A stretch of DNA of 51,991 nt, taken from Candidatus Micrarchaeota archaeon (lineage in GTDB: Archaea; Micrarchaeota; Micrarchaeia; Anstonellales; Bilamarchaeaceae). The stretch lies in NCBI GenBank assembly GCA_040757035.1, contig JBFLYM010000005.1, positions 1 to 51,991 of the forward strand, read 5' to 3'. The position numbers and the translations under genes were made by a program. The first letter of the stretch is position 1. The number at the start of each line of letters is the position of its first letter. The notes below the pieces were generated by a model. The model was not told the origin of the DNA, searched no databases, and worked only from the letters and a program-made list of their open reading frames with translations. This document shows, one piece after another, positions 14,907 through 39,820 of this stretch.

Positions 14907-15036
14907 TCGAAAGCTCTTCGATAACAATAATTATCAGTAAGGCAATTGTTATTCAATCGTTATTGATAGAGTCGATAGTGGTTAAGACACCACTCTCACA
15001 CAGTGGGGATTCGCGGTTCAATTCCGCGCAGGCCCA
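14897..15036 (+). tRNA. tRNA-Val(CAC) with 65-nt D-loop intron (14913-14977, about position 16/17)
   Basis: GGGCCCG/CAGGCCC acceptor, CCACT-CT-CAC-AC-AGTGG anticodon arm, CGCGG-TTCAATT-CCGCG T arm; BHB TCGA/TCGA with bulges AA^G and TA^G, inner helix CTCT/AGAG. Confidence 0.88.
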
Positions 15037-18994: not shown

Positions 18995-19237
18995 CGCTAG
19001 GGGGGAGATTTTCAATTTTTCCTTCCTCATTTCATCTTTATCCTCATGCTCTTAATTAGAGTAGGATGGTGGATGAGGAAGGATAATGTTGTACTTAATT
19101 TTCCTTCCTCATTTTGAACTCCCGGACGCTTTCGCGCAACAGGTTTCCGCTTGTCCCAGAATCAAGGACTGAAAACCGAAAACTGGAAACTAAAAACAAT
19201 AGCAACCTGCCGCCCTACCGGACTAGGCGACCCCAGC
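18995..19237 (-). tRNA. tRNA-Ser(GCT) with introns at 37/38 (19145-19199, 55 nt) and 59/60 (19009-19112, 104 nt)
   Basis: GCTGGGG/CCCTAGC acceptor, G73, long variable arm GCGC-GAAA-GCGT; BHB central helices TTGC/GCGG and TTCA/TGAA. Confidence 0.88.
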
Positions 19238-26982: not shown

Positions 26983-27032
26983 GTGCAATTAATATACGAT
27001 AGATTTATATGATGTAGTCAATTTAGAAATAC

Positions 27033-27486
27033 ATCCCTTTTTCTTTTTCTAAAAGAAAAAGGTCTAAGGGGTTAACTGACACTGTGTTGACTAATGCCAC
27101 CTATTTTAAGAGGTAGGTAAATGCTACCAGTATTTGCGCTTTTTCCTGGTTGGCACATCGCCCAATATGTGCAACATAAAGGGCGATGCCCCGTTTTACT
27201 GGGTTAGTCACACAGTGTCACCCCAAAAAGAAAAGTGGGGGAGGGTCAGGAGGATATGACAAACCAACAAAGTAATATCAGAAAGTACCGAAGAATTACC
27301 ATGTGTTGGTTTGTTATATGTTCATGAACGAATCGTCGTTCATGACACCTCAAACTGTTCAAAACTGTTTGAGCACCCACCTAAAAAACATTCGAACGAT
27401 TCGTCGTTCGAAAATTTTTATTTTACTTTGTAAAATAAAAACCCCCAACCAGTTTTGGAGGGGGCGAAGCCCCCTCCGCGGTTCGG
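27033..27486 (+). mobile_element. Free-standing copy of the hairpin-rich element found in tRNA T-loop introns (core A, end type 2)
   Basis: Reverse-complement match to 39194-39454 over most of its length and to the end of 39455-39607; ends CCGCGGTTCGG. Confidence 0.88.
27077..27220. mobile_element. 144-bp MITE nested in the hairpin element
   Basis: TIRs TGACACTGTGTTGACTAA / TTAGTCACACAGTGTCA; interrupts GGGGTTAACCCC, which is intact in the copy at 39455-39607. Confidence 0.85.
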
Positions 27487-33517: not shown

Positions 33518-34696
33518 ATGGGAATTACTTTGTATTTAAATAGAAAAAACAATGAAATCGCGGTTAAAGAACCACAAGACGTAAGTTCGCTTGTAAATGG
33601 GTTTTATGGCGAAATGATCAAAGGAATAATTTATCTTCAGCCTGAAGAGGTCCTTTATTTAATAGATATACGAAATGCAAAATGCATTGATGAAGTTGGA
33701 AACACATGTATGTTCAATGACATTGCTACAATATTTCTGAAGAAAAAAAAATTACTCGCGCGCTATTTGACGTTCAAAGACTGGCGAGACAGGGGAATTA
33801 TTGCCCGCCTAAGTTGTGAAGCAAAAGGAAATTATGGTCGTTCGGTTGCAAAAAAATACAAAGGAGGAAATTTCAAAATTAATGCGTATTCTCTACAAGG
33901 CGTTTTCTTTTTTGATGATTTAATTACAATATTGGATGATGAAGCGAGCGGAAAAGAACTTTATGAAAAATATTGGATAGGGCAATTTGGAACGTACAAA
34001 GCGGCGCACCGCGGAAAAATCGCAAAACTAGATATTTATGAAACTATCTACATGCTCAAACACGGCAATCTCTCGCTCAAAAACGCAAAACTTGACGAAA
34101 TATTTTCCGAAGCCGATGATCGAATAAAATATTTTGGAGATATGTATTCTGTTTACGAGGATTGGAGAAATAAGGGTTATGTGCTCAAAACAGGTTTCAA
34201 ATTCGGAACCCATTTTAGGATTTATTTTCCTGGTGCGTCGCCAATAAAAGAGGATGATGAATGGATACATTCGCGACATGTTGTGCATATCTTTCCCAGA
34301 AAAAGTAAAATGCTAATTTCTGAATGGTCGCGCGCTATACGTGTTGCGCATTCTGTAAAAAAAACATTTATTCTTGCAATTCCTGGAAAAAAATTGGACA
34401 TAAAAATAAATCCGAAAAAACCAAAATCGGATTTTATACTTTATCATAGAAAAAAAGGTGGAATACAAACTCCAAAGGACGGCCAACCGCGGTTTTTTAT
34501 GTATTCGCTTTCAGAAGACGAATATCTTGGCGGCGAAGAGCTTGCTGAAGTTCTTTTTGAAGCAAAGCACTATGGTTTGGAAACGCTTTTAGCAATTACA
34601 GATAGAGAAAGTAGCGTTACTTATTATGTTGTAAAAAGAATAGAACTTCCTGCTAGCGATTACGAATATTACGAAATAGAATGGATGCAACCTTAA
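33518..34696 (+). CDS. endA: tRNA splicing endonuclease, three-unit (epsilon2/ARMAN-like)
   Basis: KTGFKFGTHFRIY (catalytic Tyr), HSRH, RVAHSVKK (catalytic Lys); extra N- and C-terminal units; 392 aa; WIGQFGTYK loop. Confidence 0.92.
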   Translation: MGITLYLNRKNNEIAVKEPQDVSSLVNGFYGEMIKGIIYLQPEEVLYLIDIRNAKCIDEVGNTCMFNDIATIFLKKKKLLARYLTFKDWRDRGIIARLSCEAKGNYGRSVAKKYKGGNFKINAYSLQGVFFFDDLITILDDEASGKELYEKYWIGQFGTYKAAHRGKIAKLDIYETIYMLKHGNLSLKNAKLDEIFSEADDRIKYFGDMYSVYEDWRNKGYVLKTGFKFGTHFRIYFPGASPIKEDDEWIHSRHVVHIFPRKSKMLISEWSRAIRVAHSVKKTFILAIPGKKLDIKINPKKPKSDFILYHRKKGGIQTPKDGQPRFFMYSLSEDEYLGGEELAEVLFEAKHYGLETLLAITDRESSVTYYVVKRIELPASDYEYYEIEWMQP

Positions 34697-36065: not shown

Positions 36066-37739
36066 GTGAAATTATCGTTCATGACTTCTTTTGATAAATT
36101 TCATCTTCAAAAAATTATAGGTACTAATAGAAGTAATGATAATAAATACATAAAAATAGAATTGCCGCTTGTAGATTGCAATGGCAAAGCAGAAAAGTAT
36201 TTTGCTTTCGTTGAATTAGGCAAAACATTGCAGGACGAAATTTACCGTGTATTTCATGAAGATTCGCGCGGTCAATGCGTTCTCGCTACTTCTGTTATTG
36301 AAGGAAAAAATAGGACGTACATTCAAAAAATAGAATTCAATGGAACAGAATTCCAAAACATTCAAGTATATCCAATTCTTGAAAATTCAAGAGAGTATGG
36401 TCTTCCTTATGTAATAGTAAACGGCAAAGCCTATTTTCCTGGAGCAGATGAATTGAAAATTTCGCAGGATTTGGTGCGTATTGGCATTCAGGATGATACG
36501 CAATATGGCACTCAAGACCTCCCAGATTACATAAGATTTCATGGTGGTGGATGTTGTCCACTCACTGAACAAAAATCACTTGAACTCAAACTTGATAGAT
36601 GGAATACGATAACCGAATTAGAACTCAGTGCTTATAATGCAAATAATCTGCTAAATAATCTAAATTTTGATACAAATTTTGATATTTTTGATGTAAATTT
36701 TGATACAAATTTTAATATAGCAAAAGAGGAGCCTCCTCTTTCTTTTATACATGAATTGTCTGCTCTATCAATCTACCGGTCGCAATACGATAATGATGAA
36801 AGAGAATCATATTCAACAGATAGTACTGAAGGAATACCAGCAGTCACTATAAATAGTACAAGATTAAGGAGAGCTAGGAAAGGTAATGGGATAATACTAA
36901 CAGAAGCAGCAGTAAACGCAACAATGCAAGCTAATTTAACTACGTTGATGAGTGATACTGATGTTATTGAAGCAATAAACAAAGGCGAAATTGGAATAAA
37001 ACCTTTTGACAAAATAATAGACAAAAAAAATAAAACGGGCCCGAAGGGATTTTCAACCGAACCGCGGAAGGGGAAACCCCCTCCCCCAGTTTTTCTTTTT
37101 GGGGTTGATACAGATCTTGATCTTGTTGTATTATCATCAACATCTGTTTTTCTTTGGGGTGGACCCCCCAAACCTTTCTTTTTTTTAAAAAGAAAGGGAT
37201 ATGGGTTTGAACCCTCGACCTACGGATATCCTCGTTGCTTCCTAGGTAGTATTTCAAATTCTGCGCGTCGGACGCTTGAAACGCGAAACCAACGATCAAA
37301 AACTCAAAATCCAAAATCCAAAATCCAAAATCCAAAATGCGGAACTGAATCTTCAGATCTCGCAAGATTTGGAAAAATAGCAAACGAACCATTGTTTGCT
37401 GGAAGCATAAAAGTCCGCCGCTCTGGCCAAGCTGAGCTACAGGCCCTAAATAAAGGCACTAAAGATACAAGTAAAGGATATAATACAACAGAAATAAATA
37501 AAAAGGGTAATAATTCTTACAATGCTTTTGATATTCTCAAAACTTTGAAACAAAAAAAAGAAGCAGGAAAAAAGATAAAGAAGAAGACAGAAGAAAAAAC
37601 AGAAATCGCTTTTTTATCTCCGCATGAAAAAGCGCATCGGAATACAGCTACTCATTGGACTATCGCCACTATACCCGTTATATCTTTTTCCACCGCGTTT
37701 CAGAATCATCATCTTCCAGTGAAATACCAAATTGCTTAA
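36066..37739 (+). CDS. Hypothetical protein; frame stays open through a dcd fragment and antisense across tRNA-Lys
   Basis: First ~290 aa look like genuine coding sequence; the remainder is translated repeat and tRNA sequence, so the true end is uncertain. Confidence 0.5.
   Translation: MKLSFMTSFDKFHLQKIIGTNRSNDNKYIKIELPLVDCNGKAEKYFAFVELGKTLQDEIYRVFHEDSRGQCVLATSVIEGKNRTYIQKIEFNGTEFQNIQVYPILENSREYGLPYVIVNGKAYFPGADELKISQDLVRIGIQDDTQYGTQDLPDYIRFHGGGCCPLTEQKSLELKLDRWNTITELELSAYNANNLLNNLNFDTNFDIFDVNFDTNFNIAKEEPPLSFIHELSALSIYRSQYDNDERESYSTDSTEGIPAVTINSTRLRRARKGNGIILTEAAVNATMQANLTTLMSDTDVIEAINKGEIGIKPFDKIIDKKNKTGPKGFSTEPRKGKPPPPVFLFGVDTDLDLVVLSSTSVFLWGGPPKPFFFLKRKGYGFEPSTYGYPRCFLGSISNSARRTLETRNQRSKTQNPKSKIQNPKCGTESSDLARFGKIANEPLFAGSIKVRRSGQAELQALNKGTKDTSKGYNTTEINKKGNNSYNAFDILKTLKQKKEAGKKIKKKTEEKTEIAFLSPHEKAHRNTATHWTIATIPVISFSTAFQNHHLPVKYQIA
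36945..37014 (+). repeat. 70-bp identical copy of the dcd 5' region (29586-29655)
   Basis: TTGATGAGTGATACTGATG...CCTTTTGACAAAA at both sites. Confidence 0.93.
37036..37446 (-). tRNA. tRNA-Lys(TTT) with introns at 37/38 (37228-37407, 180 nt) and 59/60 (37050-37205, 156 nt)
   Basis: GGGCCTG/CGGGCCC acceptor, GCTC/GAGC D stem, GCGGA-CT-TTT-A^A-TCCGT, GAGGG-TTCAAA^T-CCCTT; BHB central helices CTTT/GAGG and TTCA/TGAA. Confidence 0.9.
37056..37204 (-). mobile_element. Hairpin element (core B, end type 1) forming the tRNA-Lys T-loop intron
   Basis: Plus strand ACCGAACCGCGG...GGGATATGG; closely matches 39455-39607. Confidence 0.88.
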
Positions 37740-39099: not shown

Positions 39100-39173
39100 A
39101 TTATCCGAATTTGTTTTCCGAATTTTAAGAATTTTGGCGATTAATGATTAACTAATGATCAATACAGATAAAT

Positions 39174-39710
39174 TGGGCCCGCGGAGATTCTCAACCGAAC
39201 CGCGGAGGGGGAAACCCCTCCAAAACTGGTTGAGGGTTTTTAGGTGGGTGCTCAAACAGTTTTGAACAGTTTGAGGTGTCATGAACGACGATTCGTTCAT
39301 GAACATATAACAAACCAACACACGGTAATTCTTCGATACTTTCTGAATTACTTTGTTGGTTTGTCATATCATCCTGACCCTCCCCCAACGAATCGTTTTT
39401 TCTTTGGGGTGGACCCCTCAGACCTTTCTTTTTTTTAAAAAGAAAGGGATATGGACCGAACCGCGGAGGGGGAAACCCCCTCCCCCAGTTTTTCTTTTTG
39501 GGGTTGATACAGATCTTGATCTTGTTGTATTACTATCAACATCTGTTTTTCTTTTTGGGGTTAACCCCTTAGACCTTTTTCTTTTTCTAAAAGAAAAAGG
39601 GATATGGGTTTGAACTCCGAACCTATGGCTAGCTCAGACAGTCATTTATTGTTTTGTATTAAAGGACGTCATATAAGACCATCGCTCTAACCTGGATGAG
39701 CTACGGGCCC
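39174..39710 (-). tRNA. tRNA-Ile(TAT) with introns at 37/38 (39631-39671, 41 nt) and 59/60 (39188-39608, 421 nt)
   Basis: GGGCCCG/CGGGCCC-A73, ATGGT-CT-TAT-A^A-GCCAT, CGGAG-TTCAAA^T-CTCCG; BHB central helices CTTA/TGAG and TTCA/TGAG. Confidence 0.88.
39194..39607 (-). mobile_element. Two head-to-tail hairpin elements (39194-39454 core A; 39455-39607 core B) inside the tRNA-Ile intron
   Basis: Both units run ACCGAACCGCGG...GGGATATGG on the plus strand; junction GGGATATGG|ACCGAACC. Confidence 0.9.
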
Positions 39711-39820
39711 ATGCCTTGCCTAAAGAGACATATCAATAGGTTATATAGGCTTTATAGGCTTTATGGTTTAATTGGTAGAGAGATTTAAAAGTTTGATGCA
39801 TATTAATATTTTAGATTATT

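Follow-up and report, generated by a model that had tools for sequence, protein, structure and literature searches.

The tRNA-Ile gene described here raises the question of how an archaeal tRNA gene comes to hold, within its T-loop, a 421-nt intron made of two unlike units joined head to tail. The gene is located in a stretch of 51,991 nt of a Micrarchaeota archaeon (referred to below as the window), which belongs to a genome of 985 kb in 50 contigs that is 95% complete. The arrival and movement of archaeal tRNA introns are called unknown in the available parts of a 2014 review (PMC4090602) and of a 2026 preprint on Asgard archaea (10.64898/2026.10.13.758758).

The tRNA-Ile gene and its two introns

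The minus strand at 39710..39174 carries a tRNA-Ile(UAU) gene with a 537-nt precursor. Exon 1 (39710-39672) ends with the anticodon UAU and A37, exon 2 (39630-39609) reaches position 59 of the T-loop, and exon 3 (39187-39174) provides T60, the 3' strands of both the T stem and the acceptor stem, and the discriminator A, giving 75 nt after splicing. ARAGORN retrieved no tRNA from the raw window; after in silico excision of 39188-39608 it called a tRNA-Ile(tat) whose 41-nt intron lies at the canonical position, and the 7-nt T-loop and the 5-bp T stem were restored. The exons are 86 to 92% identical to those of orthologues in four genomes of the same genus (G001, G003, G004, and G007), and matches were also found in G002 (81%, extending into the intron) and G006 (72%, taking in the upstream flank). 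The acceptor and T stems pair in the minimum free energy (MFE) fold of the precursor, and the 421-nt intron is far more stable than its shuffled counterparts (z = −9.7). The gene appears functional, and its splicing is predicted from the sequence.

The first intron (41 nt, 39631..39671, minus strand) was placed by ARAGORN at the canonical 37/38 position, where the splice motif, drawn by eye, shows a 4-bp central helix (CUUA/UGAG) between two 3-nt bulges. The second intron (421 nt, 39188..39608, minus strand) interrupts the T-loop at position 59/60. In its motif, likewise drawn by eye, UUCA (positions 54 to 57) and UGAG form a central helix with one G-U pair, AA^C and AA^U are the bulges, and the outer helix is the T stem. 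With an inner helix of only 2 bp, this is a relaxed bulge-helix-bulge; the MFE fold of the precursor takes a shifted register at 59/60 instead of the bulge-helix-bulge register. The 3' strand of the motif, whose UGAG pairs with UUCA of the T-loop, is part of the heptamer TTGAGAA (39188..39194, minus strand), which is the proposed insertion target.

Two U5 tracts are present on the sense strand of the intron, around 39586-39598 and 39433-39445 (minus strand). Runs of five U stop archaeal RNA polymerase, and synthesis of the full-length precursor is thus not assured. Searches with Rfam models at the gathering threshold retrieved, over the whole window, nothing except one partial tRNA at 14970-15028, and over 39100-39780 they gave a single chance-level match (E = 0.23), with no group I or group II intron and no match to the intron or its units.

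An open reading frame (ORF) 4.5 kb from the intron (33518..34696, plus strand) encodes a three-unit (epsilon2-type) tRNA splicing endonuclease of 392 amino acids. It matches the ARMAN-2 three-unit enzyme, PDB 4FZ2, from end to end (residues 3 to 392, E = 3e-138), as well as the Pfam family tRNA_int_endo (E = 4e-28). The ARMAN-2 enzyme cuts a relaxed 59/60 intron in vitro, as described in the accessible text of the report (PMC3239211).

All six orthologues of the tRNA-Ile(UAU) gene that were read in genomes of the genus also carry a 59/60 intron, with lengths of 50, 86, 108, 112, 115, and 159 nt, showing that an intron at this position is older than the tandem and ancestral in the genus. From this comparison of sequences, the tandem did not create the intron, which was enlarged to 421 nt in the present genome. 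Four of the six orthologous introns start with (G/C)(C/T)CATATC, a motif shared with the 5' module of the repeat family described below, and this start pairs, as judged by eye, with its counterpart immediately ahead of the 3' splice motif; the remaining two belong to a different intron family.

The two units and their repeat family

The T-loop intron reads, in the sense direction, C, unit B (39607-39455), unit A (39454-39194), and TGAGAA, with zero spacer; with the units taken to their GGTTCGG ends (39456 in unit B and 39195 in unit A), it reads C, unit B, T, unit A, and TTGAGAA. Unit B (153 nt, 39455..39607, minus strand) consists of an L-type 5' module, a hairpin module, and a short 3' module, while unit A (261 nt, 39194..39454, minus strand) consists of a second L-type 5' module, a long core, and a 3' hairpin. 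On the plus strand, their joint reads GGGATATGG followed directly by ACCGAACC. The earlier note had described a 421-nt tRNA intron built as a head-to-tail tandem of units of 261 and 153 nt, and renewed reading of the sequence, together with ARAGORN after excision, bore out its coordinates, both joints, and the exact ends of the abutting units. At the sense 3' end, 25 nt are exactly the same in both units (39194-39218 and 39455-39479), and at the sense 5' end they have in common a 50-nt stretch of 82% identity (39396-39445 and 39547-39596). Their cores differ in the alignment, which agrees with the claim in that note that the tandem is not a slippage duplicate. An 18-mer of the shared end occurs four times in the window at up to three mismatches, against none expected (100 shuffles).

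The ends of the units, CCATATCCC… and …GGTTCGG, are not inverted copies of one another. A hairpin lies 8 to 9 nt from each end, one composed entirely of A/T and the other entirely of G/C. The latter, at 39204..39221 (minus strand) in unit A, 8 nt before the 3' end, and at 39465-39483 in unit B, has a conserved stem and a variable loop among the copies in this genome and in other Micrarchaeota assemblies. Eight nucleotides of this hairpin and the tail after it, CTCCGCGG (39199-39206 and 39460-39467), also occur unchanged where the T stem meets the acceptor stem in exon 3 (39182-39189). The match may be due to chance, and the same bases are conserved in the copies of other genomes.

With the 421-nt intron as query, BLAST returned 96 matches in the genome, and iterated searches defined about 58 family regions totaling 8.9 kb, many of them at contig ends. 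The copies are 90 to 99% identical, with 37 intact 3' ends in about 1 Mb, and pieces of unit A are 95 to 99% identical to copies on contigs C1, C6, C12, C18, and C46. Units of the family span 120 to 260 nt. Their building blocks are a 5' module (about 60 nt), hairpin modules, a core that is either short or long, and the 3' hairpin followed by GCGGTTCGG. Every module finishes in a stretch of roughly 15 nt of the type CCCCAAA(A)GAAAAA, and smaller pieces are nested within the modules.

The family is prominent in T-loop introns. The first version of the intron finder produced 1207 mostly false candidates, which composition filters and ARAGORN reduced to 16; two of these were dropped, one being a tRNA-Phe whose 3' end is duplicated and the other a match inside the endonuclease gene, leaving 14 complete T-loop introns of 46, 57, 104, 119, 156, 166, 202, 239, 274, 298, 313, 383, 421, and 593 nt, among which that of tRNA-Ile is the second longest. 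The family is present in at least 9 of the 14, in tRNAs for Ile, Lys, Arg, Glu, Gly, Asp, and other amino acids, and thus in several isotypes of one genome. ARAGORN called 16 tRNAs in the raw genome sequence, and most tRNAs of such genomes escape ordinary tRNA finders. Two further genes of the window were missed in this way, namely, tRNA-Ser(GGA) (18996-19237, minus strand), with introns of 55 and 104 nt, and tRNA-Lys(UUU) (37037..37446, minus strand), with a 180-nt anticodon-loop intron and a 156-nt T-loop intron that contains a single unit (37056-37204).

The T-loop intron of tRNA-Lys(UUU) is the one-unit state at a paralogous site. Its unit lies 2.2 kb from unit B, with which it shares the hairpin and 3' part at 88 of 91 positions (97%), and the 5' modules agree at 50 of 62 (81%). 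This combination of a 97% identical inner and 3' part with unlike 5' modules suggests that the 5' part of the resident intron may itself be what now forms the 5' module of unit B. The tRNA-Lys intron has nothing in common with its orthologue in the closest relative, which indicates that whole-intron replacement or gene conversion also occurs.

The distribution of the modules among genomes is uneven. The core and 3' part gave 49 matches in this genome and no convincing match in 30 relatives, suggesting a recent, lineage-specific burst. The 5' module is present in multiple copies in all relatives of the genus, where it is found in T-loop introns, in canonical introns, beside duplicated 5' stumps of tRNA genes, and at a few gene starts. 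In three loci of these relatives (L042 and L066 in G007 and L059 in G002), it is located between a duplicated stump and a complete gene, the stump repeating the 5' end of tRNA-Ile (21 nt), the 5' end of a tRNA-Gly (11 nt), or the start of a protein gene (about 38 nt). It looks, from these sequences, as if insertion was followed by restoration of the 5' end of the gene. Furthermore, a core of roughly 57 nt ending in the same 16-mer occurs at no fewer than 27 loci in other named Micrarchaeota assemblies.

Several copies contain or adjoin other repeats. The copy at 27023..27486 (plus strand), outside any tRNA, contains a nested inverted-repeat mini-element and a 49-nt insert. The mini-element (about 145 nt, 27077-27220), with perfect inverted ends TGACACTGTG…CACAGTGTCA, occurs in seven more loci (C1, C7, C9, C22, C23, and twice C46) and is always nested at one point of the GGGG…CCCC hairpin of the 5' module (8 of 8 left ends). 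The 49-nt insert (27388-27435; also on C17 and C35) has its own palindrome and splits the TAAAAA stretch of the unit core, which flanks it on both sides. At C22:14393-14425 (G000), the 3' end of the element is followed by TTCGG repeats (five including the terminus) and then by the TTGAAAA tail of a tRNA-Gly T-loop intron, and a public contig of a related strain has an extra 5 nt at the equivalent spot of the Ile locus. At C1:38228-38525 (G000), a second copy of the T-loop and 3' end is found 183 nt downstream of tRNA-Phe and resembles the scar of an integrated or excised element.

Element ends, the flanking motif, and competing explanations

The 37 exact 3' ends (…GGTTCGG) fall into few contexts: another unit begins directly after 10, TGA(G/A)AAT comes after 11, 7 lie 0 to 1 nt from a TAA stop codon, and 9 have other contexts. 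Ten of the 11 ends with the TGA(G/A)AAT tail are in tRNA T-loops, and the remaining one, on C17, has no visible tRNA 3' end. The seven stop-adjacent ends face convergent ORFs of 245 to 775 codons. In four of four of these genes tested, the C terminus of the protein aligns to the last residue of its orthologues in the genus, showing that these four genes are not truncated. TTRRA occurs within 2 nt after 12 of the 27 nontandem 3' ends, against a background frequency of 2.6%. The motif beside the unit can be written as TT(G)A(G/A)A. In T-loop introns it is the 3' strand of the splice motif. At gene ends its reverse complement forms a stop context, T(C/T)TAA, for which the T-loop equivalent on the complementary strand is TT(C/T)TCAA.

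An empty site is available at the transcription factor B gene, where CTCTAA is followed by TTTTTTT in the closest relative and by CCGAACC in this genome. The element end is therefore fixed to the base, and no bases are duplicated at this, the checkable (3') end. Terminal inverted repeats and fixed-length target duplications were not seen for the units, so that they lack the features of inverted-repeat MITEs, and by eye a 3-nt TTA duplication is absent at full-length copies. In other assemblies, 4 of 27 core copies have flanking direct repeats of 15, 15, 25, and 50 nt (L107, L121, L144, and L173, respectively), which start 0 to 1 nt past the 3' end, with 12 to 20 unrelated nt preceding the 5' end; the other 23 show no flanking direct repeats above a shuffled control.

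The 5' ends are more varied. Eleven of 38 come after a T-loop, 11 after an element 3' end, 4 after TTCAGA or TTCGAA within copies, and 12 elsewhere; 26 of the 38 thus follow TTC-purine-purine, be it in T-loops, at element 3' ends, or at two distinct internal sites. Many copies outside tRNAs have no 5' module at all. Several arrays mix unit types, as judged by their hairpin loops, and in the five arrays at gene ends or between genes whose outer end is inside a contig, the unit on the motif side is full length and the outer unit has no 5' module. At three loci, a unit follows an internally truncated older unit with the joint …TTCAGA abutting C CCATATCC, which is not predicted by simple insertion beside the motif.

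The reading that we favor, with a probability of roughly 0.55, is that the ancestral 59/60 intron was enlarged by two head-to-tail units of a small, nonautonomous, and recently amplified DNA repeat, inserted beside a motif that survives the insertion, and that the whole is spliced as one intron. Insertion of the units would take place at the level of DNA, in a single orientation and with no target duplication, immediately 5' of a TT(G)A(G/A)A-type motif, which in T-loop introns is fixed by the required pairing with the invariant T-loop. As the motif would survive beside the inserted unit, a later unit would land between the earlier unit and the motif, leading to spacer-free head-to-tail arrays of unlike units. 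Recombination at shared CCCCAAAGAAAAA-type stretches would reshuffle the modules, and the three-unit endonuclease would remove the entire array through the outer motif UUCA/UGAG with its bulges AA^C and AA^U. A more specific proposal, which we put forward tentatively and with the odds against it, is that a Micrarchaeota element recognizes the DNA sequence that gives rise to the 3' strand of the T-loop splice motif, together with look-alike T(C/T)TAA stops, which would account for repeated landings in introns that spare the gene. If true, this would be the first concrete mechanism to explain how the tRNA introns of archaea take up sequence, pass from one tRNA to another, and lengthen into arrays.

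The driver in that case would probably be a single-strand (HUH-like) or other site-specific enzyme. None of the enzyme families searched for could be tied to the element. A Y1 transposase was considered and rejected as unsupported, because the sole intact IS200-type gene (C41:250-696) has flanks unlike the element and the two do not co-occur: Y1_Tnp is found in one of five other assemblies with the element core and in 7 of the 30 relatives that lack the core and 3' part. Some 150 nt upstream of this gene lies a tRNA with the element at the end of its T-loop intron. TnpB-like genes gave four matches, of which one is intact, and were likewise rejected, as their ends are unrelated to the element. 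Y2 and Helitron-type families gave no matches in the genome, but the control genomes gave none either.

Among the alternatives, the one that fares best, although we consider it unlikely, is that units integrate at the element's own 3' end, …GGTTCGG, as a mimic of the T-loop (GGTTCAAA), or that a circular unit integrates there, with the new 5' end joining after TTC-purine-purine. The pattern of 5' ends fits this explanation as well as it fits insertion beside a flanking motif, with 11 T-loops, 11 element 3' ends, and 4 internal TTCAGA/TTCGAA sites making up the 26 of 38 ends that follow TTC(A/G)(A/G). Moreover, the joint of a circularized unit would equal the tandem joint; for a putative DNA circle it would read …GGTTCGG(T) followed by CCATATCC…, and that of an excised circular intron RNA would read …GAGAA followed by CCCAUAUCC. 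However, the outermost units of gene-end arrays are 5' truncated with no TTC-purine-purine motif adjoining, it is the 3' ends and not the 5' ends that are base exact at stop codons and at the empty site, and the four internal cases represent only two distinct joints, one of them common to three loci. Repeated site-specific integration that grows an array, as suggested in the earlier note, remains the best-fitting account, with the same joint type at 10 to 11 loci and unlike units mixed in several arrays. Where that note placed the site at the element's own end, the evidence points instead to a recognized site outside the element, in the TT(G)A(G/A)A motif that adjoins the unit on its 3' side.

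Recombination clearly acts too: hairpin modules stand in tandem, C11 carries a 135-nt period, and the Lys intron has been completely replaced relative to the closest relative. That it acted alone, through gene conversion and unequal crossing-over among preexisting T-loop introns that share 5' modules, A-rich stretches, and tails, without any transposition, appears decidedly improbable. The common CCCCAAA(A)GAAAAA finish of all modules speaks in favor of this explanation, as do the two to three tandem copies of hairpin modules at several loci, the 97% identical block behind different 5' modules in the Ile and Lys introns, and the array at C11:1594-1821 with its near-perfect 135-nt period. It leaves unexplained, however, the copies 0 to 1 nt after the stops of seven unrelated genes, the empty site in the sister genome, and the confinement of the burst to this genome.

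An artefact of assembly, in which two alleles or loci were chained through shared repeat sequence, is very unlikely. Many contigs of the assembly do end within these repeats, public Logan contigs (three runs of one groundwater study) are short in the repeat and none spans the array, and a stretch of about 150 nt of unit A (39196-39346) is repeated at k = 77. At the same k, though, the unit joint and the sequence from 39347 to exon 2 are unique, and all but 1 of the 495 127-mers over 39100-39720 are unique within the assembly. This uniqueness argues against a collapse of two alleles in the sequence, without proving the join, and the same joint type is found inside 10 other loci with unique flanks. 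Least probable of all is a route through RNA, in which tRNA ligase joins excised introns together or into other pre-tRNAs that are then copied into DNA: the many 5'-truncated copies with fixed 3' ends and the direct repeats of 15 to 50 nt around 4 of the 27 core copies in other assemblies would suit it, but no RVT_1 reverse transcriptase was found in the 95% complete genome, the unit joints lack the TGAGAA plus C expected of ligated whole introns, and the element end at gene ends differs from the site of RNA cleavage.

Comparison with known systems

Full-text literature searches retrieved no report of repeat-built or tandem-unit tRNA introns in Micrarchaeota. The present case adds an exact head-to-tail joint that recurs, a 3' end that is exact to the base and has an empty site, and a flanking motif common to tRNA introns and stop codons. 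The tandem intron offers a clue to the growth and spread of archaeal tRNA introns. The recent burst, the exact ends, the recognizable motif, and the empty sites and shorter introns of sister genomes make the question testable by population metagenomics and one recombinant enzyme.

The closest relative of the splicing system is that of ARMAN-2 (Candidatus Micrarchaeum acidiphilum), for which the available text of Fujishima et al. (2011, PMC3239211) describes noncanonical bulge-helix-bulge 59/60 introns, tRNAs with multiple introns, and the epsilon2 endonuclease. The tRNA-Ile gene resembles it in phylum, in the 59/60 position, in the splice motif (relaxed as drawn by eye), in the type of endonuclease, and in having multiple introns per tRNA. 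In contrast, the ARMAN-2 intron tested in vitro, as given in that text, has 13 nt, whereas the present one has 421 nt and is made of two units of a repeat that also occurs outside tRNA genes.

A second parallel is offered by the transposed tRNA introns of Thermoproteales, in which one intron family is found across isotypes at splice-permitting sites, with the mechanism described as unknown (Fujishima et al. 2010, Mol Biol Evol 27:2233, as summarized in PMC4090602 and 10.64898/2026.10.13.758758). Both cases present one intron sequence family in tRNAs of different isotypes within one genome. The Micrarchaeota repeat differs from the Thermoproteales introns, as far as those summaries describe them, by its exact termini, its head-to-tail arrays, and its copies beside the stop codons of protein genes, and the empty site in a sister genome indicates, in distinction to them, insertion at the DNA level.

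Among mobile elements, nonautonomous derivatives of IS200/IS605 include the palindrome-associated elements of haloarchaea and the REP elements with their tyrosine transposases. Like these, the units have no terminal inverted repeats, a hairpin near each end, and many copies just downstream of genes, and they are inserted in one orientation beside a short conserved motif, with no duplication at the checkable end. Unlike the IS200/IS605 type, the two hairpins of a unit are dissimilar, there is no co-occurrence with Y1, and the element bears no relation to the sequences that flank the resident IS200-type gene (C41) and the TnpB-like gene (C10). With rolling-circle transposons (the IS91 family and Helitrons), the units share a fixed 3' end that is preceded, at about 9 nt, by a G+C-rich hairpin, the variable or truncated 5' ends, the lack of target duplication, and the head-to-tail arrays; they differ from them in size, measuring only 120 to 260 nt.
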